DNA from: Lobosporangium transversale
Taxonomy: Eukaryota
NCBI RefSeq assembly: GCF_002105155.1
Contig: NW_019028989.1
Coordinates: 682,001-746,000, forward strand
Reading direction: 5' to 3'
Length of the DNA stretch: 64,000 bases
Part shown: positions 3,613 to 61,587 of the stretch, one piece after another
Layout of the letters: each line of letters opens with the position of its first letter
How positions within the stretch are numbered: position 1 is the stretch's first letter
Program-made: the position numbers and the translations under genes
The notes under the pieces: model-generated
The model's database searches: none
What the model was told of the DNA's origin: nothing
The model's input: only the letters and a program-made list of their open reading frames with translations

Positions 3613-3948
3613 TACAAAAAAAAAAAGGAACTTGATGACAGGAGGAGAAGGTGTGAATTTCTTTTCATGTTGGCTGCCTTTTAAGTTGCGAGTACCCCAA
3701 CTTTTTTACACGACTTACTGCGTCGATATTATTTGAGCAGCATGCTTACATTTTACAGTCGATATTGATTTTTATAGGCGTTTTCTTAAGAAAAACGTCT
3801 ACAAATTTGATTAAATTGACCTCCCTAAATGTTTTATTCTAAAATGACGTTTGGAAAGTCACACATATATATTTCTCACATGACATGTGATGAGAAACAA
3901 AAATTTTTATTTTTTTTACTCATTGCTGCTTATAACAAAAAAAAAAAA

Positions 3949-8900: not shown

Positions 8901-9885
8901 TTTTTACGTATGCGCAGCAGAAAGTGGAGAATAGCTATAAAGACAGGAGTTTTCCCATCTGATTCTCTCTTTGCTCTGTCATCTGTCATCTGTCCTTCTC
9001 TATCATGAGTAATACACGTTTCGCATATTCATCAGCACCGCTGCGGCGTGTGGACTGCGTACAGTTTGGCATCCTTTCACCTGAGGAAATTGTACGTTTC
9101 ATGATGAAAAGAGAAACAAGATGTATTATCGCTGCTTCCCGTAAAGTAAAGCAATATTAATAAATGCTTATCGGTTTCTCACATTTCTTTTTTTCTTTTA
9201 ATATAGAAAAATATGTCAGTGGCCAAGATTGAGCATGCAGAACTGATCGACGAAGCCACTAAGAGACCTAAGATTGGTGGCCTGCATGACCCTAGAATGG
9301 GAACTATTAACCGAAACTTCAAGTGCCAAACTTGCTCTGAAGGCATGGCTGAGTGTCCTGGCCACTTTGGGCACATTGAGCTTGCTAAGCCTGTCTATCT
9401 CAACGGTACACTTAATTGGCTCTAATCAAACAGCATTTCTACTATTATCATTTATTTATTTACTATTTGTTACTGTAATTTATTATTTATTATTTTTAAT
9501 TACTATTGTTAATCTTTATTATCCATTTATTATCTATAATCTGATCTATATCTGTTTAAACTTTCTAGGCTTCCTCACAAAAGTCAAAAAGATCCTTGAG
9601 TGTGTATGCTACTCCTGCTCAAAACTCAAAGTGGACGATGTAAGGATTTGGTCGTTTAGTATTTTTTTTTTTTTTTTTTTTTTTTCCACATAAACTCTCT
9701 ACAGAGAAAAACAAAAACAAAAAAAAAAAAAAAAAAAAAAAAAAAGACACTCAATGACAAAGTGCCAATCGCATCTACTGGATAATTGCATCATCTTTAT
9801 AGAACAATAGCAAGTTTGTTCGCGCACGTCGAATCAGAGATCCTAAGGTCCGATTGAAAGCTGTGTGGGAGTTGGCTAAAACAAA
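6000..9885. repeat. Right arm of giant inverted repeat
   Basis: Reverse complement of 1-3885. Differences I could see are homopolymer lengths and one substitution (3853 G vs 6032 T). Confidence 0.97.
6273..6872 (+). CDS. Hypothetical 199-aa ORF, divergent from the transposase
   Basis: ORF track; possibly spliced and element-associated; no domain recognised. Confidence 0.3.
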   Translation: MPKAITKKFKAVTLNTLPPPYDDKESLSSPTPTSAIVYIKPLIPNKLCIAYTTTPTKTGTFKPPGEECSEVGHVRFPRHVHRCHACQTMILDIFTEKKKCPKNATIVALPDNRSRHHHYLDPTPVVISAEFFSPPDPSKAFSPSPDPGKYGSEADGGTIASRLRSLEENVCKLVDINSIQLRTTDNRLSDICTFYFLFF

Positions 9886-20683: not shown

Positions 20684-23219
20684 CTGTACGGTTTTTGCAA
20701 AAGATTAGAGAGGATACAGGAGACGAAAATAAACAGAACTTACAAATTTTTTGTGGGTGTGCCGGCACCCAAATACTTGTGTCTAGCGTCGTGCGCGCTT
20801 TGCAGCCGGAGCAGGGACTCTTCCGTGGGCTTGTACTTTGCAGGCCTCTCTTGCCTCTCAATTTGAGCAAGACCGATTCTTGCGATGTTTTCCGCCCCTA
20901 CTGCGTCACGGTCGAAGAATACCTTACATGTCCAGCAATATTTAGAGCGAGGGTACACCGTCTCTAAAAAGCTATCGCAGAGAGGTCGGGGACAGCGGGC
21001 GCTGGTGTAAAATTCGTGCGCCCCTACAGTGAAGTGTCCTCGTGCTTTGACCTAAGCGTTTCAAATGGCAGTCGTTTATTAACAAGGGCTCTATGGCTTT
21101 CCAGCTTTTCTTACTTTTTTTAAAAAAAGCCATACCTGTGTGACAAGGTGTCTCGTTATAGCAGTGTGCTTGCTGGGAACTCCTTTACTACTTTCAACGG
21201 ACCCTAGGCCGACGAAAAGCACCCCTTTTCCCCGAGCATCTTCAACACTCGCTGCACCGCGTAGTCGAACGTAGCTCGTTGAGCCTTTCGTAGGTCCCAT
21301 TTTTTTTTCAGGTCCACCTGGACTCGTAGAATTCTTGAAGCACATCCAAATTCTTTGATCCTATCTGTGTCTGGGACTCCTCGTTCATCCATTGAAAGTA
21401 CTCATTGTACGTATCCCTTCCAAACACAGGGATGGCGCTCTCAACCTCAATCATTCCTTTTTCACGCTTCCTTTTGTTCAACAGGTGATTGAAGCGGAGG
21501 ACGGGGAGGTACAAGAACCTGCTTCTCACCTTTACCTTTTGCCGCAAGTTAGGGTTGTGAGGATCCAGGGAGGAAAACGTAAGGGCGTTAACAATACCAG
21601 TATCACATCCGACGATAGTTGTGGTGTTTACGGATGGGCATCGCCCTGGTTTGTTGAATGTGAGCTCAACGTTTTCAAGCAGTTTGGAGCTCCTCTTCCA
21701 GTTTATGTTTGCGTAGTCTTCATCTGTTAGGTCTTCACCGGCCGCCTCTGAACACGTCGTGTTGAGAAATCCCTGAGAAAGCTCCAGTTCTTGGCTGGGG
21801 TCTTCTTCATCTACGTCAGACTGCTGCTGTCTCTTCTTCGTCTGGGTTGTGTCATAGGCAAGTAGATTCAGAACTAGACCGTTGGTAGAAACTGTTCCTT
21901 TGAGTTTGAACCGAGTTAGATCCTTGTCCTGTGACTGCAGGGATACTTTGTCTCGATATCCAAGAACCATGCGATCGCCTCCAATGTCACAAAAGAGAGC
22001 CTGAATCAAAACCCCTTTTGTTCCCTGTACACACTCAAACATTGCAGTCTTGGAAGGATTGTCGAGAGGCAGAATACGCTCCAGCAGCTGCTTGGTATCT
22101 TCGTTCGCCCAGAGGGTGTCAACTAGGGCGTGTTCAGACAGATACACATACCCGGGTGACCAGGGGGACGTAGGAAAGTCTGAGTATTTTTTCACTTTTT
22201 TGTTCTCCCGCAAAAAAAACTCAATGTCGCTCATATCTTCGTTTGTTTTCTCGACATCAAACTAGGAAAAAAAAAATAAAAATAAAAAATAAAAGTCTGA
22301 ATAAAGAGCATTTGATTGCAGAATATACATGAAAATACCTTACACAAGGTTATACCATTGCGTTCCTGTACTGCCGCGTTCCCTCCCAACATCTCACTAG
22401 CTTCCCTTAGGTAATCTCGAAGCATTTTATTGTAGTTCTCGTTCCACGCAACCTTTCGAATTAATCGAAGATTATTAATCGGGCCAACGTCTCGAGGTTC
22501 CTTGAGTAATCATTGCCTGCGATGGCACAGAATAACACCAGATGTTCATGTGATGACGGGCTTAGTGCTTGGATAACGTTGTCTACATCGTAAACCCCAA
22601 ACTTCCGTCTACGGTGTGGAAGGGGTCGCGCTAGGAAGCAGACTCGTTCGCACGCAAAAAAATCAGAGTCTTGGGATATCACGATTCTATCATTCTCCTC
22701 ATTATGGCACCCTATGCATGGGTCCGCTTCATATGTACACAGACAGACATCGAAGACAGAGCTAAGGCCTGTTGCCAGCTGATCCTTTTCCTGGACGCTA
22801 AGGGTGTGGACTTCTCGAAGACCCTTCTGGATGCGCCTCATGACTTGAGGACGAGTCCATACCCCACTCCGAGAATTTCTCTCGAAGGTGCTCATATCGT
22901 TCTCCAAAGCATCCATATTTTTTTCTCTTATGGCTTGCCGTTCTGTCCTTGCTTTTTCTTTCTCAGTACAAGGTTCCCCATCAATATGTATAGTCAGATT
23001 GTCCTTTATCACGAGAGCCAGGGACCTTCCTACATCAATGATGGATTCGCTTTTCATCTTGGCATGGACGACTCTGCGGAGGGTGTCGTAATAGAACGTA
23101 CCGAGGAGATCTACATGAACAGAATGGTCAGGGTTTGCCGCCAAGAAATTGCCCACGTCAGTTTCCGAAGGTAAAACCCCGCGATCCGCAACCAGTTTGA
23201 AGAAGGACTTCAGCCCCAT
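20684..23219 (-). mobile_element. XPG/FEN1-like PIN nuclease fused to Fanzor-type RuvC, copy 1 (frameshifts, internal deletion)
   Basis: N-term MGLKSFFKLV, VHVDLLG, IHIDG..EK, YEADPCI, SQDSDFF, GNDYS. C-term TTIVGCDTG (RuvC-I), FVGLGS..GVPSKH, VGAHEFYTSARCPRPLC..KYCWTC..FDRDAVGAENIA (RuvC-II Glu, Zn finger, RuvC-III). GT-AG introns. Confidence 0.85.
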
Positions 23220-26229: not shown

Positions 26230-28976
26230 TCATCCTTCAACGGAAGTAGAGTTGGCCTTGTGTTTAGGATCAAAGCGGAATGCCTCAGGAGCTGGCCCTA
26301 AAATCATTTCACTCAGCTTAATCCAGTCCTTGACATCAGGAGAAGCCATCAGTGTCTCAAGGTCATTACGTCCAAAGAAAAGAGGCGGCCGATCATTCAT
26401 CTTTTGCGGAAGGACCTCAAGCAGGCCAACTGGGACATAGCGATGCAAAAAGCCTATGTAGGGTATAGCAATAATAACAGGACGATAACAACAGGTCAAC
26501 TGAATAAATCGATTCAATGACCGCTTCCAAAACTTTTATCAATGGATACATACTTTGCCACTCTAACAAAAAACGACGGGTTTGGTTAACGCCTTGAGTA
26601 TCGGAACCCCAGTGTTCTAGCCCATAATTACAAAATCTCTTCATCATATCGAAGCGCTCGCCAGAAGAAATGTCCCAGTCGCGGTTTGACTTTATCTCCT
26701 CAAAGATCCAGGGCTTCATCAATGCACCACGTGCAATCATGCATCCGTCCACATTGTGCTCCTTCATATGACGATAGTAATCTGAGGGTCCGAGGATATC
26801 TCCATTGCCAAAGAGTGGCATATAATCATCTGCACCTAGAGATCCACGATTGATTTTAGTACATTGGCTAATATAGTCCCAATCAGCTAACTTGGTGTAC
26901 CGTTGTTGTCGTGAGCGGCCATGAAGAGTACCAAGAGCCGCTCCAAAATCATAGAAAAGAGATGTCATAGTTTCGCCAATTGGCTTCTTGTCATGTACAG
27001 CCATCCTAAATTTGACTGTGACAGGAACATCCAGTACTGTCTTCATTCCCTTGATCATTCTCTTGATCTTATTGGGAGAGTTTAGTAGTCCACTTCCAGA
27101 GCCCTAGCAATGCAAAAAGAATAACGTTCATCAACTTTCGAGATCTAACTAGGGCAAATACACAATGTATAGTTATGTTCTAGCCACTGGATTTTTTACA
27201 TTGTTGTAAACAAGGTCGATCGGGCACCCCATGTTCAAATCAACAAAGTCTACATTAGCCACCTGGTTGATCATATCACAGGCTCTAACAACAACATCGA
27301 CCTTGTTACCAGTCAACTGCACGCCAAAAATGTCTTCGCTTTTGTGTCTTCTCAAAAGAGCCAGCTCTCCCTTTTGTCCCTGTACTAGATTTGAAGCCAT
27401 GGCCATCTCGCCACACGTGATGTCAACACCATATTCTTTGCAAATGCGTCGAAAAGGTAGGTTTCCAACCGTAGTGAGAGGTGCCAAGTATGTCTTGCCC
27501 CTAAAATCGATCTATGAATGATAGGACATTTAAGTTAAATATATTAGGTAAAAAACGATACGTCTGCTTGATATATGCTCATGCCGTATTGAGCATCACC
27601 TACCTTCTTCTTCTCGCATGGGCGTAATGGAACATCAGGCGTGTCGGCAAGTGTAGGACCATCTATAGCAGTTGATGTTGTAATACTCTTGATATTTCTG
27701 CCTTCCAAATCTAAATCCTGATCCGATATAATCGTCTCTGTTTCTTTAGTAGCTGTGTTGGACGGGGACAGCGTCTCATTGCTACTAATTTTATCTACTA
27801 TTTGCTCTTCAGACTTATTTGGCGCATTTTGTGCAATCTCCTCTGCCATTTTCTTGACATATGCCTCTGATCGTGAAAAATCGAACTAAATATAAAATAT
27901 TATAATAACAATTAATAATTGCGAACATCTCTTGAAGAGTATGTCAATATCAGTTCAGCCATTTGTAGCGGATGGCATTTTACATACGTTGAAAGATCGG
28001 AGCTTAAGAGTAAGATCATGAGTGAAGACATTGAGAGACTGGGGTTCATATTTAGCGATTTTTTCTTTATCCTTAATAAGTTTCCCGTCTGCGTCTAGAT
28101 GAGCGCTCAAATATCTGCATTTATATCCGTAGTGACAGCTAATCCACAATGTAAGGACGAAGCCTTGTGTTAAAAAAGGGAAAAGGATTAACTTGATAAA
28201 ACATATTATGCGCTAAATGGGACATTAAAATGACCTATTATAGCAAATCAATAAGACGTACTCTCCAGTCAGTTCATAGTTAGGGCAACGGTCACCTAGA
28301 TCCTTCCCTTTTGCTTCCAGATACTTTTGAACATTATGATTAAACTTGCAGCTATAGTGTAAAATCATCCACGGAGCAGAGTACCAGTTAGAAAATATAC
28401 ACCTGGTATCATTTCATTTGCAACACTAATGTATGGGCAATACCTATCGCCTTTATCGCATTCCTCGCCTCTTGCAACTTTAAAGCAGATCTGAACCTCA
28501 TCTTCGATGCGACGTGTAACAACTCGATCCTGAGTTTGCCCTCCACGCTTCTTCTTATTATTCTTGACATGCTTCTAAAATATTCGATGAAGAGAAAATA
28601 TAGTGTTAACACATTGATCAATGAAAGAAGCCATACCTTTCGGTGGCCTTTTAGGCAAAATAAAATGAAATGAAAATAAATAATAATAATAGATAACAAT
28701 AATTACATCTTTACGGCTTCGCTTGTTATTATCATTCTTAGTATCCTCGTCTTCTTTTAAGCTATTATTGTCACCCTCTCCAGTTCGTCCCTCATCGCCT
28801 TCTTTCTCGACCGTTTCACTTAAGGAAGCTATGGTTTCCTCCTGCTGAACTGCCGCTGCTTTGGGGCGAATATACTGGGGTTTTATGGGTGAAATTCCCT
28901 TTTGATAGGTTGTACTTGAGGAAGATTCATCTTCATTCAACATGGTTGCTGTCGGTGCAGGGTTTTCAGAAGACAT
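26230..28976 (-). CDS. DUS3: tRNA-dihydrouridine(47) synthase Dus3 (multi-exon)
   Basis: [99 protein letters not shown]-terminal CCCH fingers. Confidence 0.95.
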
Positions 28977-29523
28977 GTCTGTTGCCTGTCTGTCGTGAAG
29001 AATTATAATGGTACATCAGACAGTTGAAAAGCCCGACGTTATCCTCAAATAAGCAGTCATTTCTGTTGATCCGCGAAAAAAAAAAAAAAAAAAAAAAAAA
29101 AGCAGCACATGCGATGCTAGTCTACCTTCTTTTATTTCACAGCATATTAAGCTTTTTTTTTTTCTGCGAGCTTTTGCTAATGAAGCTTCCTCCCTGAGTT
29201 AATCAGAGAAATGGTTGGTGACGTGAAAGAACAGAGCCAAAGATGCATCAAACGGGCTCTACTCTCTTTTCCGAGATGAACTTGGCTAGAGCTTTGTTAG
29301 CTTTTTTTTACATCTATTTTTCTCTGTTGCATCGCATTCAATATACCTCTCAGAAAGCTTTTATTGAACGAGCCATTGACATACTTTATAGCGGTATGTA
29401 ACCCCTACAAACGCATTTATCCCATCTAAAGGAAGACTGCTTTCTAATAATGCCATTCAAAATACTAATTCTTTGAAAATTGATAGTCTTGACCTATACA
29501 AGAAAAAAGGAAGGCAGTATCCA

Positions 29524-32500
29524 ATGTTTGGTTCTACGTTGACTTCATCACGAGGCGTCCTCTTGCCATCAAAGGCTCTTAAGCTCTTCAATCTTTACAT
29601 GGAGGATACTCGGAGAATAGACAATGACCATGCCATCCTCATGGAGCTGTGTCTCGATGCAGACTTTGCGCTGTCTCGAATTGGGCGATCGGAGAGAAAG
29701 AATCTGGCCTCTTCAGGTTCCATTGAAGACAAGATGCTTTATCAAAGTATCGGCTCGGCCCATTATGAAGTTGCTCGCTTATTCGAACGTTTGGGTCGCT
29801 CAAATGATGCCAAGAAGAGCGACATAAAAGCAGAGAAATGGGGATATGTCCCAGGAAGCAGCAATATATGTCAACAACCATCACGATTCGGTAGCTTTAC
29901 TAACAATAACAACAACAACAATAATATCAATGCTAAGCAGGAGAGCGGCGGCAACAGCATCAGCAAATTGAAGGAGATGAATAAAGCAACAAAATTTGAA
30001 ACGACACACAGCATCGCAGTTATTCCCTCAGATATTTTTGACCGCGACGTAACTCAAGCGACCTTCAAGTGTAACCTGCCAGATCCAGATACTCCATTAA
30101 ATAATACCCAGCAGCTAGCCTACTGTCTCACTTTGCTTTCGACTGCACAACAACCACTAAAGGATCTTACAGCTCAGGAGCAAGAGTGGTCTTCGGCCAC
30201 ATCGAAAGATCAAGATGAGAACGCTAGACTTTATAACTTGGCTTCAGATGTAATTGCAGTGTTCATCGAGGATGATATCAAGACTGAGGCTGCTGTTGCT
30301 GAGGTCGTGATGCTGGCTCCAGTTCTCAAGCATGAACAATATAGGAAAGTGCTCATGACCTTGGTCAATGGAATCAGCCAGAATATCATGCTGGCGACTT
30401 ACTTGCTTGAAGGGTTGGCTCAGCTGATTCAGCATGCTTCTCCTGGATACCTCGACTCTGATGATCTGGTCAATATCCTCAACACTCTCAATTCTCGCTT
30501 ACAGGGAACGCACATGGAGTCCAGCAGCCATATCTATCGGCTTTGTGTTACAGTCTCACATGTGCTTGATGCCATGATAAACAATCAGGTTAAGGGTCTA
30601 AAACGGGAACAGCTCCATGAGCCATTAGCAGCCTACTTGAAAGAACTAAAAGGCAGCTCAGATCCTCATCTGGTATACCATGCAGCCTATGCTTTCCAAG
30701 CTCTGCTATATATCCCAAATGATGAGTCATCAATGCAGGCCATGCTTCGACGTACATCAGCAGTGGCTCGAGGAGTATTTGGACTAGTGAGTGCAGTCAA
30801 AGAATTAAATCTAAATGACTTTATGGATGAACTAGCCAATATTCAGAATGAGCTTCATTATGTAACAGACATTGTTGATAAGAGTCTGGATGTGTACAAA
30901 GGCGCGGTTTCACTATACGAGAGTGGAGCGGCATTCAAACAGGATATGGAAGAAGGGCTCAGCTTTAACCGCAAGACTGCATGGTATCCAGCGCTCCGCG
31001 GAGCTGATGCACTCCTCCAGACTGGCGAGTTCACCAAGTTCAAGACTCTTGTGTGTGAAACATCCTGTCGAAATGATACAGCATTCCAATGGGGACTATG
31101 CCAGCGGTTAGGACAGATTGCAGCCAATCCACAATGGGACCTGAAGGTTCGACAAGATGCCATCGCATTCCTTGGAGAGATGTACAAGAATGACAAGGAT
31201 TGGGGCCAACATGTGAAGATCAAACAATGGATTGTAACTATACTGAAGGGATTGACCTCGTTACCAATCGATGGTCTACAAGGTATGTAGATATGATATG
31301 GTGTCTCCGTCATCATTGAGTCGGTTATGAGAAGCGAAGATACTGATGCTGATGGTATATTATCTATATACATTTCATTGTAGTTGTAGAGTCACTCCTG
31401 CATGATCTTGCTACGGATGGAGATACCAACAAGCAACAGCTCTTCAGCAATTGCTCTCAAGAGGCAATAAGACAATACCCTTTTATTGTCGCTCTGCCTC
31501 CGCCTGCATCTCCATCATTGATTAATCGTGCACAGAATAGGCCCGATGTGGAAAAGAGTCTGCGTCTACTCATGCGACAGCGGATGGCGAACAGAGATGA
31601 TAAATACTTTTACATTCAACAATATGCCAAAGCCAGTCCACAAGCGAATGACGACGACTCGTTCTTGCTGATGGACAAGGTGAATGAGTTCCTGGACAGC
31701 GATCAGAAAGTTCTACTTATCCAAGGTGATTCAGGGGCAGGCAAGTCGACATTCAACCACGCTCTAGAGCACACTCTGTGGGAAGCATATCAAAAGAACC
31801 ATGATCGAATCCCACTATTCATCAATCTACCAGCCATCGATGACCCATCCAAGGATGTGGTCACAAAACAGCTGCGAATGTATGATTTCACCAAGGAGGA
31901 GATCAAGGAACTGAAGATGACCCGGTCATTCATCTTGATTTGTGATGGGTATGATGAGGCTATGCAGACTAATAATCTGTATTTCACCAACCACCTCAAT
32001 CAGCCTGGTGGGTGGAAGTGTCAGATGGTGATCAGTTGTCGTAGTGAATATCTTGGAAATGATTATCGAAGCCGCTTCCAGCCTATGAACCGCAATTACC
32101 AAGTAAACGCAGAGTTGTTCCAAGAGGCTGTGATTGTACCATTCTCTGAGGCTCAGATCGATGACTATATCAAGCAATATGTCGCAACAATGGACATACT
32201 GTGGGGTGCAGAAGACTATCTGCGTGCACTTAAGATGGTCCCTAGTCTACGAGAACTTGTGAAGAATCCATTCATACTATTGATGACGCTAGAAGTATTG
32301 CCACGAATGGTAGATCCGGATCAAGATATCTCCAAAACGCAAATCAAGCGCGTCACGCTGTATGACCAATTCGTTGAGCTGTGGTTTGAGCGAGGCAAGA
32401 AGCGATTAGGCGAGATATCGATGCCAGAGGATAGGAAAATGTTCAGAATACTATGCGATGAAGGGTTCGCACAAAATGGGATCTTGTACTTGAAAGAGCT

Positions 32501-35500
32501 TGCTGTGGCAGTCTACAAGAATCAAGATGGCAATCCAGTGGTGGATTACTCCCCATCCAAGGATAGGAGTACATGGAAAGAGGAGTACTTTAGCAGAGAT
32601 AGCAGGAATAATCTCCTGCGAGAAGCATCACCTATGAGCCGCACAGGTGGCCAGTACCGGTTTGTGCATCGGTCTATTCTGGAATACTGTGTGGTACGAG
32701 CGATGTTTGAACCACAGAAAGTGACAAAAATGAACGCTATTGATACAGAAGCAACAGCGATACCGAATTCCCGCCGAAGGAGCATCAGCTCTGTATTCAG
32801 TTTTGAGGCGGAAGAGAGCCAAGCAGTTGAGCAGGCAGCAGATCCAGCCGAAGCGAATGAGACCTCGCCTTTGGTGTGGAGAAGCTTTGTGAATGAGCCA
32901 TCGATTCTTGAGTTCCTGAAAGACCGAGTTGGAATGGAAGCAAAGTTCAAACGGCAGCTATATGAGTATGTTGAACTGTCGAAGAGCGACAAGCAATGGC
33001 GGACAGCAGCAGCAAACGCAATGACGATCTTAGTCCGAGCAGGAGAGTCGTTTATTGAAGCAGACTTGCGAGGCATCCAGATCCCAGGAGCCGACCTTAG
33101 CCATGGAATATTCGATGGAGTTCAACTACAAGGAGCAGATTTGAGGAATGTCAACCTTCGTAGCTGTTGGCTTCATAACGCAGACTTGAATGGAGCAAAG
33201 ATGGCAGGTGTACAGTTTGGAGAATGGCCACTTCTTCATGCAGGAGGGAAGATACTCCAGGTATCATATTCGCCTGATGGTCAGACATTAGCTGCAGCTG
33301 TGTACGATTATGATACCGATGAGTATTATGTCAGGATCTATAATACGTTGACATGGGAGAGGTGTATGAATTTGGGGACGGAAGAATACGGCCAGAACTT
33401 TATCTACTCCCCAGACAGTCGACACATTGCCATATGGCATAAGGAGAAGAGTGCGGTTCTTGTGTTCGATGCAACATTAGGCACAGTAGTTCATAGGTTC
33501 GAGGGTCATACAGATGTTATCTGCTCAGTAGCATACTCTCCAAATGGTGATTATCTCGCCTCAGCTAGCAAGGATGGATCAGTGCATGTGTGGGATGCCA
33601 GGTCTGGAATGACCCAATACATAATAGAGGCTCATGCTAGTAAGGTAGCAAGCCTGGTGTATTCACCTGATGGAAAGCAGATTGCAACTGGAGGTGAAGA
33701 CAAGGCGGTACGGTTATGGGATGCTGCATCAGGGAAGCTGATGCTAATGCTTCAAGTCTATAGTTCGCAAGTTTTGCAAATCGTATATTCACCTAATGGT
33801 CAGGAAATCATCACTCGCTATGAGGCCCGTAAATCATTGGATGTATGGGATGCTAGATCTGGTCAGAAGAAATGGGCCCTAGAGCATAAGGGCGATGTTG
33901 ACGGCGTTCAATATCCTCCTGATGGAAAATACGTCGCTTCATTCTCCAAGAATACAGCATTTCAGTGGGATATGCAAACAAGGGAAATCATTCATACTCT
34001 TACTGGTACTTCCAGTACCATTAATGGCTTGAAATATTCGCCAAATGGAGAACAGATTGCCACTTACGGCAAAACAGTGCGACTTTGGGATGCTCGATCA
34101 GGACAGCTGGTCAACACATTTTGTGCCCATTTTATTAATGTAAGGGGTATGGCATACCCACCAAACGGCTCTCAGGCTGCATCATTCGGTGAAGATGGGA
34201 CGATACGGCTGTGGGACACACAATCACAGCAATCCAACCACGATCAATATGGCCATACAGATATCATTAGACAAGTGAGGTTCTCACCGAATGGTCAGCA
34301 TATGGCCTCATTCAGCAGGGACGGTACAGTGCGTATGTGGAATGTTCGAACAGGACAGTGTATCCATGTCTTACAAAGCCGAGCAAAGGACATTAAGTAT
34401 TCGCCTAGCGGCCAGCTGCTCGTATCTATCGATCCCTTAGTTGATCCCATTTACTATTGGGACACTGAATCAAGCCAGATTATTCAAGTCTTACGCTCGC
34501 AACACCAAAGCGGAGGCATCAATGCCTTTGATATTTCACTCATTGGCCAACAAATTGCTTGTGGCCATGGAAAGGGGAACGTGACTGTATGGGACGCGCG
34601 AACAGGACAGCTCATACATACTCTGCAAGGGGGTAGATATCTTGTGCGTTCTGTGCTATTCTCGCCTAATGGTCATCAGATTGCTTCTTATGATAACAAC
34701 AGTAGGATCAGAGTCTGGATGGTGCACTCAGGAGAGCTCCGGTATGAATTAGAAGCCATGGGACTGGATAAGCCTTATTTGGTTTACTCGCCTGACAGTC
34801 AGAAGATAGCATTTGTTCAAGACTACAAAAAGCTACAAGTACGGAATGCGGAAACAGGCGAGCTCTGCCACGAAACAATCTTCGATGGTATTCCACCACA
34901 GATAGCATTTTCGCCATCCGGTCGACTGGTAGTTGTTGGAAGTGCAAAAGGGCCAATTAATATGATGGATACTGAGACAGGGACTGTGCTACATACGCTC
35001 GAAGGGCATACCAACTGCACAGTCAGCATATCTTATTCTTGCGATGGCCAGTACATTGCCTCAAGCAGTGAAGACGCGACTGTACGACTGTGGGATACAG
35101 AGTCAAGCCGGTGCTTGGCTACTATCCCAATCGCAGCTGGATATGTTCATACCCTTGGATGGAGTATTTCCGAGGAGGATTACTTTCTGGCGACAGGACA
35201 TGGTGATGGCTGTATTCGGATGTGGCAAATTGTCAAGAGTAAGGATGGCCAATGTCATACCCGCTTGAAGTGGAGCACAAAGCAAACAGTTCTATGCGCT
35301 ACAGGAGCAAGCATTCGAGATGTAGCGGGCTTGAGTCAAGCTAATAGAAAGCTTTTGGAACAACTTGAGGCTGTTGGTGATCCAACACAGTGTCCGACTT
35401 CCCAAGCATCAAATCATGAGACAAAAGCAGTGCCATCTACGCCATCTGAGCTGGGAAGCGACGTTTTGAGTACGATATCAAAGAGGAGCAATTCTAGAGC

Positions 35501-35675
35501 AGGGCTATTAATCGCTAAAAGTGAAGGAATCAAAGAATATCAATTTATTTGCAGCAAATGTAATGAATGCAACGAGTGCGATGTTGCGCATTTTATCTTA
35601 TGTGGCTCATACGACAGTATCGATAGCACTGATCTGCACAAGGTGAAGAGCGCACATATCGATCTAATAGAGTGA
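29524..35675 (+). CDS. NLR-like STAND protein: Arm-like N-terminus, NACHT, pentapeptide repeats, WD40 repeats (intron ~31283-31383)
   Basis: Walker A GDSGAGKST, Walker B LICDGYDE, ISCRSEYL, FVHRSILEY, ADLRGIQIPGADLS pentapeptides, many GH..YSP.G...A....D..VRLWD repeats. Confidence 0.93.
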
Positions 35676-37719: not shown

Positions 37720-39713
37720 TCAAGTCCTTTTGCTCTCTGAATCAACAGTTGGCTCATGGTTGGGCATATTCTCAAGCAATATAACGCTGGCTCTCTCTTG
37801 TGAATCTGCTACCTCACCAAATGGACCCTGTTGAAGCTTGAGGCTCCGAATTTGATGTTGTTCACAGTCAAAAGTGCCTATGGCTCTCATATGGTCCCGA
37901 CAGCAGTGTTTACATCGTTGATGCACACATTTTAATGAGTAAGAATGATGACAGGCGCCACTCAGGCAAAGGTTGTACACGGGCTTTATCTTCTTAACCC
38001 TTTTGTTTGATATGATTGAATTAATATCCTGTGCTTGATCTGACTCTGTTGCAGCGGTAATAATACTGAGCTCATCCTTGTGCTGTTCCGTAGTCATTAT
38101 GTCTACCTTGCCACTAGCTATCATCGTTGTGCCTAGTACCTCCTGTTCGTTGTTGCTCTTGCATTTCTGTTGCTGCTGCTGTTGTTGCTGCTCAGGCCTA
38201 ATATACGGCTGGACGAACCAGTGGGGCAGAGTTGGGAAACCTTGGTTATCAGCTTGGTCTTTAGAGTCTCCTCTAGTCGAACGTGATGCCTCTGCATCCG
38301 CCATAAGCCTTGCTTTCAATTTCTTCGTAACTGCCCACATTTGCTCGTTGCTCTCTGCCAGTCCGAGCTCCGATCTGAGATCTGTATGAACTAATAGACT
38401 GGTTCTGAAGATCTTGAACAAATGCCCACGAATATGTGCTAGTTTGGTTTCAACTTGATCACAGATAGTCAGGTACTCTTCAGCAAGCTTCCAAGCTTCT
38501 AAATGTCCTGGCTGAAATATACCAGGATTGTATAGGTTTCCTTCTGCTGTCATGACTCCAGCACATCCTGTTTTCTCAAGGCACTTAGCAAGGTCTTCAT
38601 GATAGAGGATGTTACCGTTGGCAATGACAGGCACTAAATCCCCAACGGCCTCTTGAACGAGTCGAATCTTTTCCCAATCTGCTATTCCAGTCAAATGGCC
38701 TTTCATCTCACGCAAACGACCATGGACAACGAGCATCTGTGCACCTGATTCTACAACCATCTTTGCGTACTCGATAGTCTTTTCTACCTCAGGGAAGACT
38801 CGAATCTTTGCTGTGACAGGAATGGGAAGGTGCCTGTGAAGTGTTGAGATGAGAGATGATATCAGGGGCCAATCTTCCATAAGAAACGAGCCGTAATGTC
38901 CACGTCTGGCGATGTGCTGTGGACATCCTAGATTAAGATCAACAGCATCACAATATGGTGCCACCATCAGTGCAGCTTGAAGTAAACATTCTGGATCGTT
39001 TGCACAAAACTAAAATTCAGGAACAAAAAAAAAATTTTTTTTCAAGATCAATGAAATGTAATCAAACTGTATACATGAAGCATAAACATTTTTTTTTTTT
39101 CCTTTACCTGTGCAATCAACGGTCTATCATTAAGTCCTCCACCTTCAAGACCTTCTTCGAGCCCAGTCCATTGCTCATCTCTGTAACGTTTATTTTCAAT
39201 AAACAGTTTGGCGTTGAACATGGGTGTATAACACAGATCAGCATTGTATCTACGACTGAGGATCCGCCACGCTAGTTCTGACTGATCGACCATTGGTGCA
39301 ACTATGTATTTGGGTGATCCGATGGATCTGTAGAATTCCCATCCGGATAGTTTCGGAGGGAAGGAATGCTCGGCTCTACATTTGGCTGCTGCTGCTAGGT
39401 TACGCTGTTCAGCCTGGTTCTTTATGGGGTTGATCATCAAATCGGTGTAATACTGAAGATGAGGAAACTTCTTGAACATTTTTTGTCGATGGCCATCAAG
39501 GTGTGTAGAAGTGAGAGGCTTTGGATAAGACCGATGTGATGTTACTGGTGTTGCCGGTATTGATTCTGATGGAGACGAAGAGGCAGGGGTATATGAGGGA
39601 GTGAAGAAGGACGAGAGGATGGCTGCATTATGAGAGGCAGAAGTGGAGATGTATTTCGGAGTTGAGAGGACAGAAGAGAACGTTCTGCCAGACAGCAGAG
39701 TAGCAAGTCGCAT
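37720..39713 (-). CDS. DUS1: tRNA-dihydrouridine(16/17) synthase Dus1 (2 exons)
   Basis: [74 protein letters not shown]-terminal Cys-rich CHH..C..QRCKHCC. Confidence 0.93.
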
Positions 39714-39765
39714 TATAAAAAAAAAACACAAAGTGAAAGGGGGGAAGAGAAATGAGAAAGAAAGG

Positions 39766-39804
<39 letters not shown>

Positions 39805-53826: not shown

Positions 53827-55372
53827 ATGTGTCAAGGTGCTGTGCCTGAATATTTCAAGTTTAAAGAGGCTCCTCCAGAGCTACCCCCAGGTTGGCTAGG
53901 GTCTCGGTTCCTACACGAATTAGATGTTATCGATCCTCATACACAGACGAAGGAGTACGTGGTGTCCAAAACAGCTCCATGTCCTATCATTGATGCCCAT
54001 GTTCATGGTAAATAATAATAAAAAAAAAAACACGATTTGTGATTAACATTGAACGAGATAACTTCAATTGGAGACTTTTCCCTCTTATTTAATGCATACT
54101 CGTGGGTTTCATTGTTAGTTTTCCCTCAGAAACTCATGGATGCTGTGTGGACGTTCTTTGACAACTTTTATTGGCCTGTTCGTTATAAGGGAACATATCT
54201 TGAAAGTAGAGCTGATTTCTTGATCGAGCATGGTGTCACTCATGTTGTGCTTCTGGTGTAAGTCTACCACACTAAAAAAGACGGATGAGCCAAGAAGCAG
54301 AGCACGAAAAGTAACAAAGTTTCTTTCACTCTACCTATTTTTTTTTTTTTCATTTTTTATTTTCATTATTATTATTACAAGATATGCACACAAGAACGGT
54401 ATTGCGCGCGATTTAAACAAATATCTCGCTCAAGTCGTCAACGACATGAATACACGCTATAATAAAAAGTTCTCAAAGGAAGAGGCATCCGGCCAGATTC
54501 AGAAACAAAAGAGAAGAAGAGTGGCTACGGGTCTTGCAACGGTCATGCCTGGAGAACCTGGAGCTAAAGACATCCTAGCAGAAGCATTTACAACATTGGG
54601 ATTATCAGGAATTAAAATGCATTCACATGTTCAGTCTGTTCCAGCGAATCATCCAAGCATGGATGAGGTCTATGAGACCTGTATCCGTTTCAACAAGCCT
54701 GTACTCATCCATGCAGGCAAAGCCCCCAATAGCTCTGCCTACAAGGTCGATGCAGGCAAGATTTGTGATGCTAGCATTGTGGAGGATGTACTCAAACGTT
54801 ATCCTCGCCTACGCATGTGTGTTCCTCATCTCGGTATGACTCCTTGGCCCATCTCTCTCTTTTTGGTCTAATCGGATACTGTGACTTGGCTTATTAACTA
54901 CTGTTTCGTATTCTCTTTTATACGTCTAGGCATGAACCAATATGAAGAGTTCTTTGATTTATTGGATCGATACCCTAATTTCTATCTGGATACGACCATG
55001 ACATTCGGCTCATTCTTTCAGACGTTTGAAGAAAACAAGCCTCTAGCAGAACTGCTTCGGACAATGTTTCTTAAGCACAGTGATCGGATCCTCTACGGGT
55101 CAGATTGGCCTAATATTCCATATTCATGGAGTCGTGAGATAGCTAACTTGGTTAGTTTGATGGATGGTGATGGTGATGTTATTTCTTCGGCTGTAGCAGG
55201 AGGAGGAAATCAAAAAGGTATACACCGTACAGCGGAAGGCGATACGGTATTAGAAAAGATCCTGTGGCGTAATGCAAGCCGATTCTATGGCATCTCTGAA
55301 GAGGACTTGGGATTGTCCGACATTAACTCTAGTGGCAGTCAAAATTCCACGCCATTCCCATCAAATCTGTAG
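53827..55372 (+). CDS. Amidohydrolase_2-family metal-dependent TIM-barrel hydrolase (multi-exon)
   Basis: IIDAHVH, GIKMHSHVQ, PVLIHAG, YPRLRMCVPHLG, FYLDTT, RILYGSDWP, ILWRNASRFY. Confidence 0.88.
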
Positions 55373-56034
55373 TTTAACATGGCGCTTTTTATATTCCAAA
55401 ATGTGTTTAAATGCTGTGCAAGTTATGGAGGGACATTGATGTAAAGATATTTTTAGTGTAGCCCGTTCCATTTGGTCGCGATCCCTTATATTTTTTGAAT
55501 ACTCTTAAATGTATTGGCAGCCAATTGACTCGCTTGTTATTGCAAGTGGTGTGACTGGTCAACTGGTCATTAAAATTAATTTCAGTTTATCTTGTATCCA
55601 CTAATCTGTCGAACCAGCTTAAAGGAATCTTTGCGCAAAGCCTTTGTAGTCATAGGCGGGTCCGCCTCACCTAGAAACTACCGAGTATAAAAGCCAAAGA
55701 AACTTCCTTCTTAATAAAGTCTTCAGTTTTCCCCACATGTCTTATTCTTCATCCGCAGTTCATCTTGCCATTTATCTTTTTCCCCTTTTCACAACAAGCA
55801 TTTGTCTTCCGGTAACTCATTTTGTGAGCTCACCTATAAAGCTCCCATCTTTTCTTTTGACATTCTATGGCGCTGTTTGTAGTCAAGGTTATTTGACTCT
55901 ATTTTCTCTTGTCAATCTTGTTGACACTCTTTGTCCTGCCTTTTCCTGATTGTGTCTATCTTTCTGTCCCTTAAGCAAAGATATTTTTTACAACAATGCC
56001 ACCAAACCAATTTATTATGATTAAGATATGTGGG

Positions 56035-56186
56035 GTCTATATGTTGTCTAAATAGTCCTCCTTATAAAAAAACACCATCTAGACCAAGCATAGAAATAAA
56101 GAGATTAGTCAAGAAAGCACTGTCGAGCTAATACTTACAACTTTTTCAAGACGAAGGCCTTTCCCGACCTAGTCATGTTTGTAGTA
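56035..56186 (-). repeat. Diverged copy of the 3' flank of the PIN-Fanzor gene (inverted relative to 60982-61175)
   Basis: Reverse complement tactacaaacatgactaggtcgggaaaggccttcgtcttgaaaaagttgtaagtatt matches 60982-61038 tactacaaacatgactaggtccagaaaggccttcgtcttaaaaaaattgtaagtatt; weaker similarity continues outward. Confidence 0.85.
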
Positions 56187-56540
56187 TCTCATGAAAAATT
56201 TTAGACAGACAAATAGTAACCAGGGAGCAGAAGTGAGAATAGGATGTGGGTTCACACATCACATCCATGGGGCATTTATCCAAATTTGTATCAAAATAAA
56301 ACTGCAAGTTTGTCTCGGGCACCACACCATGGGGCATAGAGCTGTTAGTATGTCTGTATTATAAATTTTCATGTAACACGTGTACTGTGAAATATGCAAC
56401 TGATCATATCCTATTGTTGTTGCCGGCTTGGTGTCTTTCCTCCCCATGGATTCAACGAAGGCTATTTTGGTATCTCGAGTTTGGACTCAACCTGTCAGTG
56501 AGCATTGGTGCAACGCATATAAGGCACACAGGCTGTTGAC

Positions 56541-57150
56541 GAGCCTACTTCTCACCTTCACCGTTTGACGCAGGTCAGGGTTGTGACGGTCTAGCGAAGA
56601 AAACGTAAGGGCATTAACAATACCAGGATCGGATTAGACGGTAGTTGTGGTATTTGCAAATGAGCATCGCCCTGGCTCATGGAATATGAGTCCAACGTTT
56701 TCAAGAAGTTTGGGGCCCCTCTTCCAGCTTATGTTTGCGTAGTCTTCATCTATCAGGCCTTCACCGGCTGCCTTTAAAACACGCCGTGTTAAGGAATCCT
56801 TGAGAAAGTTTCAATTCCTGGCTGAGATCTTCTTCATCTACGTCAGACTGCTGCTGTCTCTTCGTCTGGACTGTGTCATAGGCAAGTGGATTCAGAACAA
56901 GGCCATTGGTAAAGTCGTTCCTTTGAGTTTGAACCGAGTTATACCTTTGTCTTGTGCCTGTAGGGGTACCTTGTCTCGATAGCCATGAAACATGCGATCT
57001 CCTTCAATGTCACAAAGAGAGCCTGTATCTAGACTTCTTTTGTTCCCTGTACACATTCAAACACTGCAGCCTTGGAAGGATTGTCGAGAGGATGTCAGTT
57101 AGGACGTGTTCAGACAGATACACATACCGAGGGGGGACGTAAGGAAGTCT
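56541..57150 (-). pseudogene. PIN-Fanzor copy 3: degenerate fragment around the RuvC-I region
   Basis: Collinear nucleotide similarity to 21514-22181 (shared gaaaacgtaagggc.ttaacaatacca, cagactgctgctgtctcttc, aatgtcacaaa.gagagcctg, gttcagacagatacacata) with indels. Confidence 0.88.
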
Positions 57151-57327
57151 ATTTTTTTTATTTCTTGTTGATTGTCATGGCGAAGGCTTGATTTGGTAAA
57201 TGTAGATGATTGGAGAAGAGCTGTAAACAATACTCGAAATCCAAAAAGTTAAAACCTGTCGCTGAGAATCTTATTGTTTCGAGTTGTTCCAAATTCATCA
57301 GCCTTTTGTTTCGTTCTCTTTCATACA

Positions 57328-57337
57328 CCTATAAATA
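57328..57337 (+). promoter_or_regulatory. Putative TATA box of PIN-Fanzor copy 2
   Basis: CTATAAATA, then a pyrimidine-rich leader and a putative 5' UTR intron (gt 57463 to tag 57553) abutting the ATG. Copy 1 has TATAAAAA on the minus strand near 23455-23463. Confidence 0.4.
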
Positions 57338-57553
57338 CGTCCTGCCTCCTTCTCTTTTTCCCTCTCTCTCTCTCTCATTTACAACGACATTGCTTTCGCG
57401 CTCTCACCCGTACTCTTACACCCTCATCCCCTCACAGACCATAACTTTTTGCTTTCTTAAAGGTAAACTATCTCTACTCTAACAACTTCAGCTTCAATCT
57501 TTAGCCGCTTAAACCAACATTGCTTGCACTGTTTTACACTATACTTTCTCTAG

Positions 57554-60500
57554 ATGGGTATTAAAGGACTCTATTCATACCTTTCAAGGAGAGACCTGCC
57601 ACCAAAGGAGATTGATGTACATGAGCTTGCTGCTGAACCCCATTCATCTTTTGAGCTGGATCTGCTTGGCACTTTCCACAGCGATATACATAATATCATC
57701 CTAAGGAGATTCAGCCGGCAGAGTTCTTTCACTGCCTGCGGCCATGCTATGGCTAGTATCATTCGAAAGATCTTTGGTCCTCTTGCCACAGTGACGATAC
57801 ACATTGATGGGCCTCGCTGCGAAGAAAAAACGCGTGCCTATAGGGACCGAGATGCTAAGCGTACAGCAGCGGATGCAAAACTCGATACGCTCATAGCCAA
57901 CATGGAAACCAAGTCCAATGAAGGCAAATGGGAATCTCGAAGCCATATGATTGCCATTAAAAAGAATCTTCGACAGCTCTTCACATTCAGTCATAACGAG
58001 AAGAGGGAGCTCGTGGCGCCATTCGGTCGATACAATAACTTTGTGATTTGCCATTGTAGAAATGAGGCTGATGTGTGTATTGCCGCCAAATGTACACCAA
58101 CCAGTATCGCTGTGTCTGGGGACTCTGACCTTCTCATCTATCCTTCTATAAAAAGAGTTCTTCGTCCAATCCCTCGTCGCCATCACATGTTTGCACTCTA
58201 TGAGAAACAAGAGGTCCTGCAAGCCCTTGGGTTTTCAAGGAACAGTCAACTCCTGGTCTATGGCATTATATCCGATAACGATTACACCCCAAATATCCCA
58301 ACCTTTGGTCTTGCTACAAATGCTGAGATTATCTCCGCGCTCACTGACACTGATGCCGAAAAGTTGACGGTATCATATGTTCGTGAGGTCCATGCCCGTA
58401 GCCGTCGAACTCCTGCAGAAGGCCAGTTTGACCATTCAATTAATGTTTTCTTTGGTGGGATCCAAACCCAGGCCTCGCAGCAACCAACCGCTGAAAGATT
58501 CCTTCATTACCATGATAGAATGAGGACTGCGATATCTGCTAGGTACCAGAATAAAAATAATCAACCTCAACCCAGGTAAGCTCCTTCAAATGAACATTTT
58601 CCAAAGCATATACAAAAAAAAAAAAAAAAAAAAAAAAAAAGTCATCTAACCCTTGACATTGTTGTTCCTAATTAGATTCTATATCCCTAAACGCGCAAAG
58701 CCGAATCGCTATCGGCCTGTTTTCCCTACCCAGAAAAAGGAACTTTCCCCTAAGAAATATGACCTGACCAACTGCAAACAACACGACCGTCCCGTCAGCT
58801 CCAGCCGTCAAAGAAAGTCCCCCAAAAAAAAAGGAAAAGGAAAAAAAAGAGGATGACAAAGAAGAGGAGGTTAAGGAGGAAAAGAAGAAAAAAAAGAAGA
58901 ACAAAGGGAAGGCCAAGTATATCAGAAAGACTGATAAGACCAGGAAAGTGAAGGAGGCTACTGCCGAGGACCGACGGTTGAAGAGGGCCCACCCCACTGT
59001 TGCATTAACTCTGGGCACGTTAAAGACATGTGTAGTTGCCAAGCTGGACTCTACTTCCGATCCCAATCTCAATCCCGAGCAACTTGCTGCAACAATTCAA
59101 GGGCTCAATCAATCATTTATTAAAATGTTGAATGAGGCACGGATTCGAGCTTTCTGGGCCTGCGCCTTGTGGATCGATAACCTGCTTACCACTGGGCCAT
59201 CCAATCCAGCTGATCTCCCACAACTCCTAGATGAAGTTCTTGATAGCAGGGACTTTATTTACGGCCTTGCTGCGTTGTTGTATCACGGAGTGATGAGTCC
59301 ATTATCTAGGTATAGCAGGGAAGTGAAGAAAAAAGGCGAAGGGAACGTAGCCAAGCCGTCCCAGCTCAAAGCATACGAAAACTTCTATGCAAAGACAGGG
59401 CTTGGTCCTTTAAACCAGATCTATCCCGATTTGGTGATCAGCAAGTCGTCTCGGATGGTCATGGTCCCTGTTCGAGCAGCGCTAAGGTCTCACTATCGGA
59501 ATGCGCAGGTAAATATAATATTATAATATTTTGAGGTTATCTTATAATATGTTTATAGAAATGTTCCTAATCATTTCTTCAATATAATGTCTAGTTTGAC
59601 ATAGATATTCCAGGCGATGGAAGAAGTTCCATCCAATTCTTTTTTGAGCAAAATGCAACTGCCAAAAAATATCTGGATTTCCCTACGTCTGCTTTCCCGC
59701 CTCGGTCTCTCTGCCTAACGGAAGCCTGCCTCCTGGATATATTATGGTCTAACCCAACAGTTCGAGAGGAAATAGTCCAATTGTTGGAACTAAACATGAG
59801 TACCAAGGGGGCTGCGGAGGACAAGATCCTTAACCACAAGGGGATATTGTTGCAGGAGCTGTTTTCCTTGAAAGGATACAAGGACGTTGGACTGCAATCT
59901 GATGATGGCCCTAGAAGGAAACTACGGACATCGTTCTTTACAAACGGCCTTACCCTAACACTTCTTGCCTATGACACATCGAAGCAAAAAAGAGGTAGAG
60001 GTTCGCAAGCTGCCCAACCTTCGGATACTCAAAGATCTCAAGCAGTCCAGGCTTCTTCAAGTGCTCAGCAGGGATCCTCGTCTTCAGGCCATGGTGCAGG
60101 TGATGGTGGTGATGATGGAGACGACGACGGAAATGAAGATGACGATATCTTGCTGGGTATCAGCGATATTGACTTGCTGGAAGTTGATGAACCATTCTTA
60201 GATGGCGACGAGGGAGAAGAAGCAGCTGAAGAAGGTACATCGAGCACAAATCCACTGTCCCCGGTGAGTCCCAGTCCCCGGCGTGAGATCAACTGGAAGC
60301 AGAGATCCCGTCTCCTCGAGAATGTAGAAGTTAAATATGACACCCAGGCAGCATGCCCTCCCCCCGAAAGTACCATTATCATTGGGATCGATCCAGGCGA
60401 GAGGTACTCGATGACAATTGCAAAGTTGGATCCAAGGAAACCTAACGAACGTGAGATCCTCCGGATTTCTAGAGCGTACCTTTACAAACCATCCAAGAAG

Positions 60501-60972
60501 TTTCAGGGCGAGCTAGAGAGGCGAAAGCTTAGAAGAGGAATTACAGAGATTGAAAGCCATTGTAGGTTATCATGAATACTACACATCTGCCAAGTGTCCA
60601 CGACCTCACTGTGACAGTATATTGGAGAATGTTCCTTTTCGATCCAAGTACTGTCGAAATTGTAAAACATACTTTGATCGAGATGCTGTTGGTGCTGAGA
60701 ACATCGCAAGGGTCTGTGAGTCGCAGATAAGAGAGCAAAAACGACCTGCAAAATATATGCCACCGGACGGAGGAACTCAAGGCCAAGCTTCTAGCGGTAG
60801 TGGCGACGGTGGAGGTAGTGGTGGCAGTGGTGGCAGTGGTGGTGGTAGTAGCAGATCCACAAAAAGGGAATTTTCAGATGAAGGAGGAGGAGGAGTAGAG
60901 GGATCAAGACCACCGAAAGGACCTTTGCTGGGTCCAGGAGGAGGGGGAGAGACAAGCCGGCAACAACAGTAG
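57554..60972 (+). mobile_element. XPG/FEN1-like PIN nuclease fused to Fanzor-type RuvC, copy 2 (exons ~57554-58575, 58676-59508, 59595-60972; frameshifts and a deletion between RuvC-I and RuvC-II)
   Basis: MGIKGLYSYL, FELDLLG, IHIDG..EK, NEADVCI, SGDSDLL, DNDYTPNIPTFG (H3TH); Lys-rich linker; TVALTLGTLK; FTNGLTLTLLAYD; IIIGIDPGE (RuvC-I); VGYHEYYTSAKCPRPHC..KYCRNC..FDRDAVGAENIA. Confidence 0.88.
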
Positions 60973-61587
60973 GACACAATCTACTACAAACATGACTAGG
61001 TCCAGAAAGGCCTTCGTCTTAAAAAAATTGTAAGTATTGGCTTGATAGTACTTTTTTTTCTTGGTTAATTTATTTATTTATTTATTTCTGTGTTCTAATA
61101 CATTTCTTCTTTTTACAATTGATGGAATGTCTCGTTTTTTAATGGGACGGACTACACATGGGATAGACACAGCCCAAACGCCTCGAGGCGTCGTGGCTTT
61201 CTTCTGATGACATGAATCCCATGCCTGTGTTCCGTTGGGCAAAAAAGAGAAGCCAACACAGCATGCGGCGAAATCGTGGCTCTGTATGCGGGAAAAAAGA
61301 ATCGCGGGACGTACTATTTGCATGTAATTCACTCACTGAAAAAAAAGTTTTCTTTCTTTCTCACACAGTTGTTCTCTTTCTTTTTTTCTTTCTTCCTTTC
61401 TGATTGTTCATTTTGCATAATTATTAATTTCATTTTATTTCGCTCCACTTCATTTCATCGCAACTGTTGCTTTTTATACAAATCTACTCATTATAAAAAA
61501 TAAAAAGACATTCCAAACACTCAATCTCCTGTTTAATCTTTCTCTGATCCACAACAAAAATATCAGCAAAAAGAGAAAAAAAAAAAA

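Follow-up and report, generated by a model that had tools for sequence, protein, structure and literature searches.

The PIN–Fanzor gene and its two nuclease halves

The stretch analysed here, called the window below, comprises 64,000 nucleotides (nt) of Lobosporangium transversale (assembly GCF_002105155.1, contig NW_019028989.1, positions 682,001 to 746,000 of the forward strand), and all positions are those of the window. It contains a gene in which an N-terminal PIN nuclease domain is joined through a basic linker to a Fanzor1, a predicted RNA-guided nuclease. We found that this PIN–Fanzor fusion is real and family-wide, and that the window copy itself is broken. The gene sits in a 5.7-kb DNA element that is bounded by TA and short inverted repeats and is apparently multi-copy (Table 1). 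The motifs listed in the initial annotation of this DNA were located as claimed: MGIKGL, ELDLLG, IDG..EK, EAD, DSD and NDY in 57554–58575, GIDPG in 60384–60398, and HEYYTS, CPRPHC..CRNC and DRDAVGAENI in 60571–60705.

Table 1. Features of the PIN–Fanzor gene and of the element around it
Position	Strand	Feature	Basis or remark
55455..55458	+	AGTG directly upstream of left end; candidate flank defining the target-adjacent motif (TAM)	three contigs of other loci (2 X1, 1 X7)
55459..55472	+	left end, TA and short terminal inverted repeat	14 nt including TA; differs from right end by 2 mismatches
56053..57169	-	inverted decayed fragment of related Fanzor gene inside the element	own 3' hairpin, intron and end motif
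57152..57462 (start approximate)	+	5' untranslated exon	X7 contig cover; GT..AG joint to 57552
57463..57553	+	intron of the 5' untranslated region, its AG directly before the ATG	X7 joint; same AG|ATG layout in L001 and L004
57554..58575	+	coding exon 1, FEN1/EXO1-type PIN 5' nuclease	open; catalytic residues all present
58576..58675	+	intron between PIN exon and linker/Fanzor exon	spliced in X7 contig 11; absent in L001
58676..59508	+	coding exon 2, with basic low-complexity linker followed by Fanzor1 start (WED/REC, from ~58990)	
59509..59594	+	intron in the REC/WED region	spliced in X7; L001 intron at same position
59595..60557	+	start of coding exon 3, with WED, acidic insertion and RuvC-I (catalytic Asp 60390-60392)	
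60557..60558	+	deletion junction, frame change	alignment; loose contig ends at 60557 in 4/4 runs
60558..60972	+	RuvC-II Glu (60574-60576), Cys4 zinc finger (TNB), RuvC-III Asp (60682-60684), then Gly/Ser tail and stop codon	
60982..61029	+	conserved hairpin-bearing block of the 3' non-coding region; candidate for the 5' part of the omegaRNA scaffold	
61030..61121	+	intron within candidate omegaRNA region	joint 61029>61122, X7 only
61122..61154	+	last exon, containing a hairpin, the right inverted repeat (61141-61154) and TA; candidate 3' scaffold part	
61155..61170	+	right flank; predicted guide sequence of this locus	inferred from ~15-nt extension of Fanzor1 RNAs

Contigs of four sequencing runs were compared with the window over 55800–61400, and those of two runs (X1 and X7) over 55200–61400. 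X1 is a DNA run; X7 is probably an RNA run, a label guessed by the tool and consistent with the joints of this run, and none of the runs is recorded as RNA. In an X7 contig the GT..AG junction 58575/58676 between the PIN exon and the linker exon is spliced, as the initial annotation had predicted; the shorter side covers 214 letters, and exon 1 is complete and joined to exon 2. This joint is not listed for X1. The GT..AG joints present in X7 and absent from X1 were 57460>57552, 58573>58674, 59506>59593 and 55810>55975, and the right flank is without X7 cover.

The search for intact copies returned long Mortierellaceae relatives and two metagenome loci, L001 and L002, which overlap by 127 identical bases and, when joined, give an open frame of 1,260 residues with every PIN and RuvC motif. 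The joined protein is identical with a Benniella protein (P0001) at 1054 of 1150 aligned residues. The first exon of L001 has 703 codons and runs as a single exon from the ATG through PIN domain and linker into the Fanzor. Fusions were present in proteins from Podila, Mortierella, Benniella and Linnemannia (the long relatives were drawn from protein searches with 3, 7, 96 and 5 matches), with the same order and the same linker motifs in every full-length relative aligned. The claimed fusion of a FEN-superfamily PIN domain to a Fanzor is borne out by the X7 junction and the L001 exon, which contradict transcription of the parts as separate genes, and both halves keep their catalytic residues across the family. 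A mere gene-prediction artefact, or two neighbouring genes without fusion, is hardly credible: it could appeal to the two interruptions of the window frame and to the automatic prediction of the NCBI models of relatives, but it conflicts with the splice junction, the 703-codon exon and the constant order and linker motifs.

The folds of both halves were computed on relatives and not on the broken window copy, and conservation was read from an alignment of 15 chosen long relatives, not of all matches, with a PIN identity of about 27–42%. Pfam XPG_I matched exon 1 with an expect value (E) of 0.092, below the cut-off, while phmmer of exon 1 against PDB retrieved 7 sequences with E no higher than 10, every one of them XPG or FEN1 (the best with E 4e-04). 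The catalytic residues in exon 1 are G2, D36, D85, K92, R99, E171, D173, D190, D192 and D243; those from D36 to D243 presumably correspond, by their motifs, to FEN1 D34, D86, K93, R100, E158, E160, D179, D181 and D233. Among the rows covering each site, D36 was kept in 12/12, D85 in 11/11, K92 in 11/12, R99 in 11/11, E171 in 13/13, D173 in 13/13, D190 in 14/14, D192 in 13/14 and D243 in 14/14, so that the seven acidic active-site residues (D36, D85, E171, D173, D190, D192 and D243) and the basic arch residues K92 and R99 are retained.

The AlphaFold model of relative P0006 (7 sequences) had a mean pLDDT (predicted local distance difference test) of 57.9, with the PIN domain mostly at 70–90 and the linker below 50, and showed long helices at 85–137. 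Foldseek matched the whole domain to FEN1 (E 1.6e-09) and EXO1 (9e-09), and XPG/Rad2 ranked lower. XPG/Rad2 proper has a long spacer between its N and I regions; here the two motifs lie within 250 residues. The earlier label "XPG/FEN1-like" therefore keeps its FEN-like fold but loses XPG, the nearest Foldseek matches being FEN1/EXO1. On these models, the PIN domain is predicted to be a FEN1/EXO1-type 5' nuclease, catalytically kept across relatives. It has in common with FEN1/EXO1 the fold, the acidic active site, the helical-arch Lys/Arg, the HnTH region and the N-terminal Met-Gly; it differs in being only ~15% identical and in being fused to a predicted RNA-guided nuclease within a mobile element. 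The FEN-like PIN group, to which the RNases XRN and herpes vhs also belong, is defined by the helical arch and H2TH/H3TH (Matelska et al. 2017, PMC5499597); neither TnpB nor OrfB is mentioned in the available text of that paper.

For the other half, Pfam Cas12f1-like_TNB (PF07282) matched 60517–60969 with E 8.9e-07, above the cut-off. The model of P0009, a relative's Fanzor half without PIN (70 sequences), had a pLDDT of 81.5 and a predicted template-modelling score (pTM) of 0.80, and its 7 top Foldseek matches were all Fanzor1 (SpuFz1, PpFz1 and GtFz1). VIA aligned it with PpFz1 over 436 residues (Z 18.7, root-mean-square deviation 3.8) and with SpuFz1 residues 18–633 over 437 (Z 15.6, deviation 3.3), and the C-terminal 700 residues are therefore a whole Fanzor1. 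The full WED-REC-RuvC-TNB fold of this relative is nearer to Fz1 than to Fz2, TnpB or Cas12, and the best PDB sequence match of the family profile was SpuFz1 (E 0.0022). The C-terminal part had first been taken for a TnpB/Fanzor RuvC; the fold is right, but it is no RuvC tail only, since a complete Fanzor1 runs from about 58990. The relatives' models thus match Fanzor1 behind and FEN1/EXO1 in front.

The RuvC-I Asp is kept in 14/15 aligned relatives. A rearranged catalytic Glu next to the zinc finger is a defining feature of Fanzor1 (PMC13565253), and the claim of such a glutamate proved correct: both the window and 8/9 aligned rows covering the site have it six residues ahead of the zinc finger (E-YYTSAK-C). 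The Fanzor motif D-X(125,275)-[TS][TS]-X-X-C4 zinc finger-X(5,50)-RD (Bao & Jurka 2013, PMC3627910) was found in the joined L001 and L002 frame, from Asp991 to Thr1175 with zinc finger and DRD present. In the window copy only ~64 residues lie from Asp882 to Thr947, short of the X(125,275) spacing because of a deletion.

The single spliced reading path claimed at first does not hold for the window copy. With 58576–58675 spliced out, a single surplus base in the A-runs of 58814–58856 makes the frame end at codon 401, one base out of step with the open reading frame (ORF) at 58768. An X1 contig over 58650–59528 has 878 letters against 879 window bases, with one gap, and an X7 contig over 58674–58887 has 213 against 214; the slip is therefore private to the window copy or an assembly error. 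The tool dropped the gap row at the repeat, and the location of the slip near 58830 is inferred. P0010 reads through the A-run region of the linker.

The second break is a loss of ~100–124 RuvC residues, probably with one intron, at 60557/60558, together with a frame change. These residues are present in 13/15 aligned relatives, and the other 2 end early. All 4 runs have contigs that diverge from the window at 60557 and continue with the RuvC sequence lost here, and most of that segment is present in P0010, which is 97% identical to exon 3; this is therefore an internal deletion of the window copy, absent from its siblings. Because of it, the window copy cannot encode a working Fanzor. We rejected an intron or alternative acceptor as the cause of both breaks: the acceptor at 58675 is the one used in X7, the lost RuvC stretch is carried by sibling contigs, and no GT..AG candidate explains the residues that are absent.

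As a separate observation, length variants of the linker A-runs (two runs, 58814–58895) differ between window, X1 and X7 and decide whether the Fanzor is translated after the PIN domain. They could be decay, or a slippage switch between a PIN-only and a full-length protein.

The setting is eukaryotic, with spliceosomal introns, Rpb1 with C-terminal-domain repeats in the window and named relatives all from Mortierellaceae. In low-sensitivity scans no relative was found in 215 prokaryote genomes or in two sets of 19 and 43 viral contigs, and P0010 matched 0 of 587 stretches of metagenome contigs. At L003 (3952–4856), tandem and dispersed repeats occupy the 1.1 kb upstream of another PIN–Fanzor gene.

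The whole WED-REC-RuvC-TNB fold is common to SpuFz1 of Spizellomyces punctatus (PDB 8gkh) and the PIN–Fanzor family, but the latter adds an N-terminal PIN domain of 340 residues and a linker, making 1,150–1,500 residues against 633. PpFz1 of Parasitella parasitica (Xu et al. 2024, PMC11423790; PDB 9cf0), the top VIA match, is likewise a fungal Fanzor1, but its extra part is a RuvC insertion of ~100 residues that binds cyclophilin. According to the same paper most Fz1 have 600–700 residues, and its available text does not mention a nuclease fusion. Long Mortierellaceae FZ1 entries in Supplementary Table 1 of Saito 2023 and Table S2 of Yoon 2023 start with PIN motifs (among them KAF9430362.1, KAF9216096.1, KAI8351750.1 and GJJ71697.1), as read by eye from the first ~400 letters of each. 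They are labelled there as hypothetical proteins or bare matches, with the N-terminal domain unnamed, and XPG and FEN1 are mentioned nowhere in the supplement files searched of Saito (PMC10432273) and Yoon (PMC10711439); the searched part of the PMC10530073 supplement gave 0 matches. On whether the fusion was already catalogued, the answer is thus divided: the sequences are in these tables, unannotated, but the domain pairing is not named there. No paper in the full-text literature and supplements searched names a characterised Fanzor with this fusion, in agreement with the initial annotation, while Repbase, subscription journals, bioRxiv supplements and figure images may name it. PIN–Fanzor is a real, family-wide and apparently undescribed form of Fanzor1. 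Characterised Fanzor1 proteins are single nucleases of 600–850 residues, and here a second, resection-class nuclease is conserved.

The mobile element and its candidate omegaRNA

The score of the terminal inverted repeats was reached by 6/300 shuffles, and 5,692 bases lie between the two TAs. X1 depth was 11.7 in 55200–55406, 448 in the next bin, 100–448 inside the element and 6.2 in 61203–61400, and the longest near-identical X1 contigs inside the element had a depth of 107–199; depth was used as a step at the ends only, not as copy number or expression level. Contigs from other loci, with foreign flanks, stop matching at 55455 and after 61154, and the inverted repeats agree in place with these loose ends and with the depth step. 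Depth step and foreign-flank contigs point the same way, to a multi-copy element. Three such contigs stop matching at 55455, so AGTG is common to them; it is thus shared by at least three other left ends, among the loose ends listed, and the predicted TAM is about GTGTA, the expectation for this subfamily being a motif that ends in GTGTA or TGTA.

TA stands at both element ends and may belong to the repeat rather than to a target-site duplication (TSD). The TA-bounded inverted ends make it likely that a DDE transposase acts in trans, and the element is likely a non-autonomous, TA-bounded fungal DNA transposon. No transposase had been seen beside the gene, and we indeed found no transposase ORF inside the element; the DDE_1 transposase gene at 4.1–5.9 kb showed no match to these ends with fewer than 3 mismatches. 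We also weighed a Helitron end as an explanation of the terminal hairpin but discarded it: Helitron ends read CTRR, the end here is not CTRR, and inverted repeats are present.

The nearest known system is SPu-1, the element of SpuFz1 (PMC3627910, PMC10432273), which is also a single-gene element with terminal inverted repeats, a putative TA duplication and no transposase inside. SPu-1 has a conserved CA upstream of its inverted repeat, which together with TA makes up its CATA TAM (PMC10432273), comparable with AGTG and TA here. The PIN–Fanzor element differs in its acidic insertion before RuvC-I, its several introns (one in the predicted omegaRNA) and its inverted repeats of 14 nt against 30 nt in SPu-1.

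Several related copies were found. The inverted fragment inside the element is 84% identical over 556 nt to a copy at 21515–22069 and 83% over 98 nt to 60982–61079, with tblastn matches to the WED and RuvC-I regions. A second, divergent PIN–Fanzor copy at 20742–23219 (-) is without about residues 250–645 of P0006, has a stop near 21308 and shows the same 3' hairpin–intron arrangement. Low-depth X1, X2 and X4 contigs over 55800–61400 are ~86% identical with large internal skips (e.g. 57828>59577 and 59171>60209), which suggests older subfamilies with many deletion derivatives. The window copy is a broken member of an element that apparently spread recently. The X7 GT..AG joint at 55810–55975 (+), near the left end and outside long ORFs, may come from a non-coding transcript or from read-in of flanking genes.

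Behind the stop codon, the conserved block shares 88% identity with the inverted fragment over 76 nt, and its hairpin occurs in 4/4 copies (window copy, inverted relic, copy 2 at 20.7 kb and L002) with z of -0.9 to -2.0 each. Rfam gave 0 matches in 55300–61400. A GTAAGT donor stands in register in 4/4 copies, against 0.009 expected per 50 bases; the intron acceptor is TG in the window letters and AG in the other three copies. The spliced piece up to the TA has ~80 nt and two hairpins and resembles the SL1–SL2 stem-loop layout and the 75–90-nt size of the SpuFz1 and PpFz1 RNAs (PMC11423790), in which the region after SL1 is reported as unconstrained. Terminal inverted repeat and TSD belong to Fz1 scaffolds, and Fanzor1 RNAs extend ~15 nt beyond the TSD (Yoon 2023, PMC10711439). 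Whole-scaffold folding does not separate spliced from unspliced forms. X7 contigs over the right-end region run into flanks, and this region is well covered in X7. We regard a spliceosomal intron inside the predicted omegaRNA as a lead, not a result; it would be a new route of guide-RNA biogenesis.

Possible role of the PIN domain

The best reading, at a probability of about 0.55, is that intact members make an RNA-guided double-strand cut and that the PIN domain then resects the 5' ends, favouring restorative homing. A DDE transposase in trans would excise an element copy. RNA from the right end of the element with ~15 nt of flank, likely freed from the spliced 3' end of the mRNA, would guide Fanzor1 to the empty site beside the TAM, as in established Fanzor1 biology, and the empty allele would be cut. 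SpuFz1 cleavage leaves 5' overhangs (PMC10432273, PMC11423790), which are a FEN/EXO1 substrate, so a flexibly tethered PIN domain could trim the 5' strands of such ends and leave 3' tails. These tails would steer repair away from end joining and into homologous recombination, with a sister chromatid or a second nucleus as partner, and the element would be restored by cutting, resection and copying. The window copy cannot cut, and is at most a source of PIN protein or guide RNA.

This bears on how Fanzors help their transposons in eukaryotes, in which the homologous repair needed for restorative homing has end joining as a competitor. If true, the family would be a natural template for editors favouring precise repair or larger deletions. 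A fuller version, a one-protein homing machine with RNA-guided cut, EXO1-like resection steering to homologous recombination and a spliceosome-assembled two-exon guide RNA, is tentative; it would amount to a natural editor biased to homology-directed repair with a spliced omegaRNA.

Several points weigh against restorative homing by cutting and resection. The window copy carries both the RuvC deletion and the frame slip. X7 counts as RNA only through the guess of the tool and its joints, and in a second X7 contig one A is inserted after 58887; combined with the upstream -1, this gives a stop at 58932, so an open full-length transcript is not demonstrated in X7. Linker residues 330–446 are of low confidence in the full model (pTM 0.40), and therefore no geometry ties the PIN domain to the cut. 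The candidate spliced scaffold folds only slightly better than shuffled sequences, with z of -1.8 to -2.2 in the window copy and -0.8 to +0.5 in the other three, and the inverted ends for copy 2 and L002 are at chance (98, 41 and 255 of 300 shuffles). Engineered TREX1, TREX2 and T5 exonuclease fusions to MmeFz2 (PMC12923547) likewise tether a nuclease to a Fanzor, but are man-made and built on a Fanzor2; they lowered indel editing, so a tethered nuclease is not automatically helpful, but indels measure end joining.

Instead of DNA ends, the PIN domain may act on RNA, either setting the omegaRNA free by trimming the 5' portion of the spliced mRNA or clearing R-loop RNA for Fanzor turnover. The RNases XRN and herpes vhs in the FEN-like group (PMC5499597) favour this, and the candidate scaffold, as the 3' end of a spliced mRNA, needs processing. 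We consider it unlikely, as the nearest folds are the DNA nucleases FEN1/EXO1 with the arch Lys/Arg kept, and no such domain is needed by SpuFz1, GtFz1 and PpFz1 to obtain their RNAs (PMC11423790).

It is also quite unlikely that the many copies serve as a guide library with which Fanzor1 cuts, and PIN degrades, viruses, rival elements or element-free nuclei in the shared cytoplasm. Many decayed copies with differing flanks and internal deletions would yield many guides, and the right-end region is well covered in X7, a depth that cannot rank expression. But the predicted guides are host flanks beside insertions, the low-sensitivity scans found no viral or prokaryotic relative or target, and the gene lies in a mobile unit, not in a fixed locus.

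Self-mobilisation, in which the fusion protein moves the element by guided cutting, flap processing and host repair without a DDE transposase, would suit an element that has no transposase ORF and is apparently multi-copy with nearly identical copies. It is improbable: TA and inverted repeats at both ends are a mark of DDE transposition, SPu-1 with the same anatomy but no PIN domain is read as moved in trans (PMC3627910, PMC10432273), and a flank-derived guide targets the already occupied site, not new ones.

Other features of the window

An inverted repeat of at least 3.9 kb (1–3885 and 6000–9885, 99.9% identical) runs off the window start. Between its arms, at about 4131–5900 (-), lies a spliced gene for a pogo/Tigger-like DDE_1 transposase, and the right arm reaches the start region of Rpb1; the repeat is either a giant foldback-type element or an assembly artefact. 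A large gene at 29392–35675 (+) contains an ARM-like repeat and many WD40 repeats and presumably resembles fungal NLR-like genes. Two dihydrouridine synthase (Dus) genes lie ~11 kb apart, at 26417–27103 and 37720–39797 (-).

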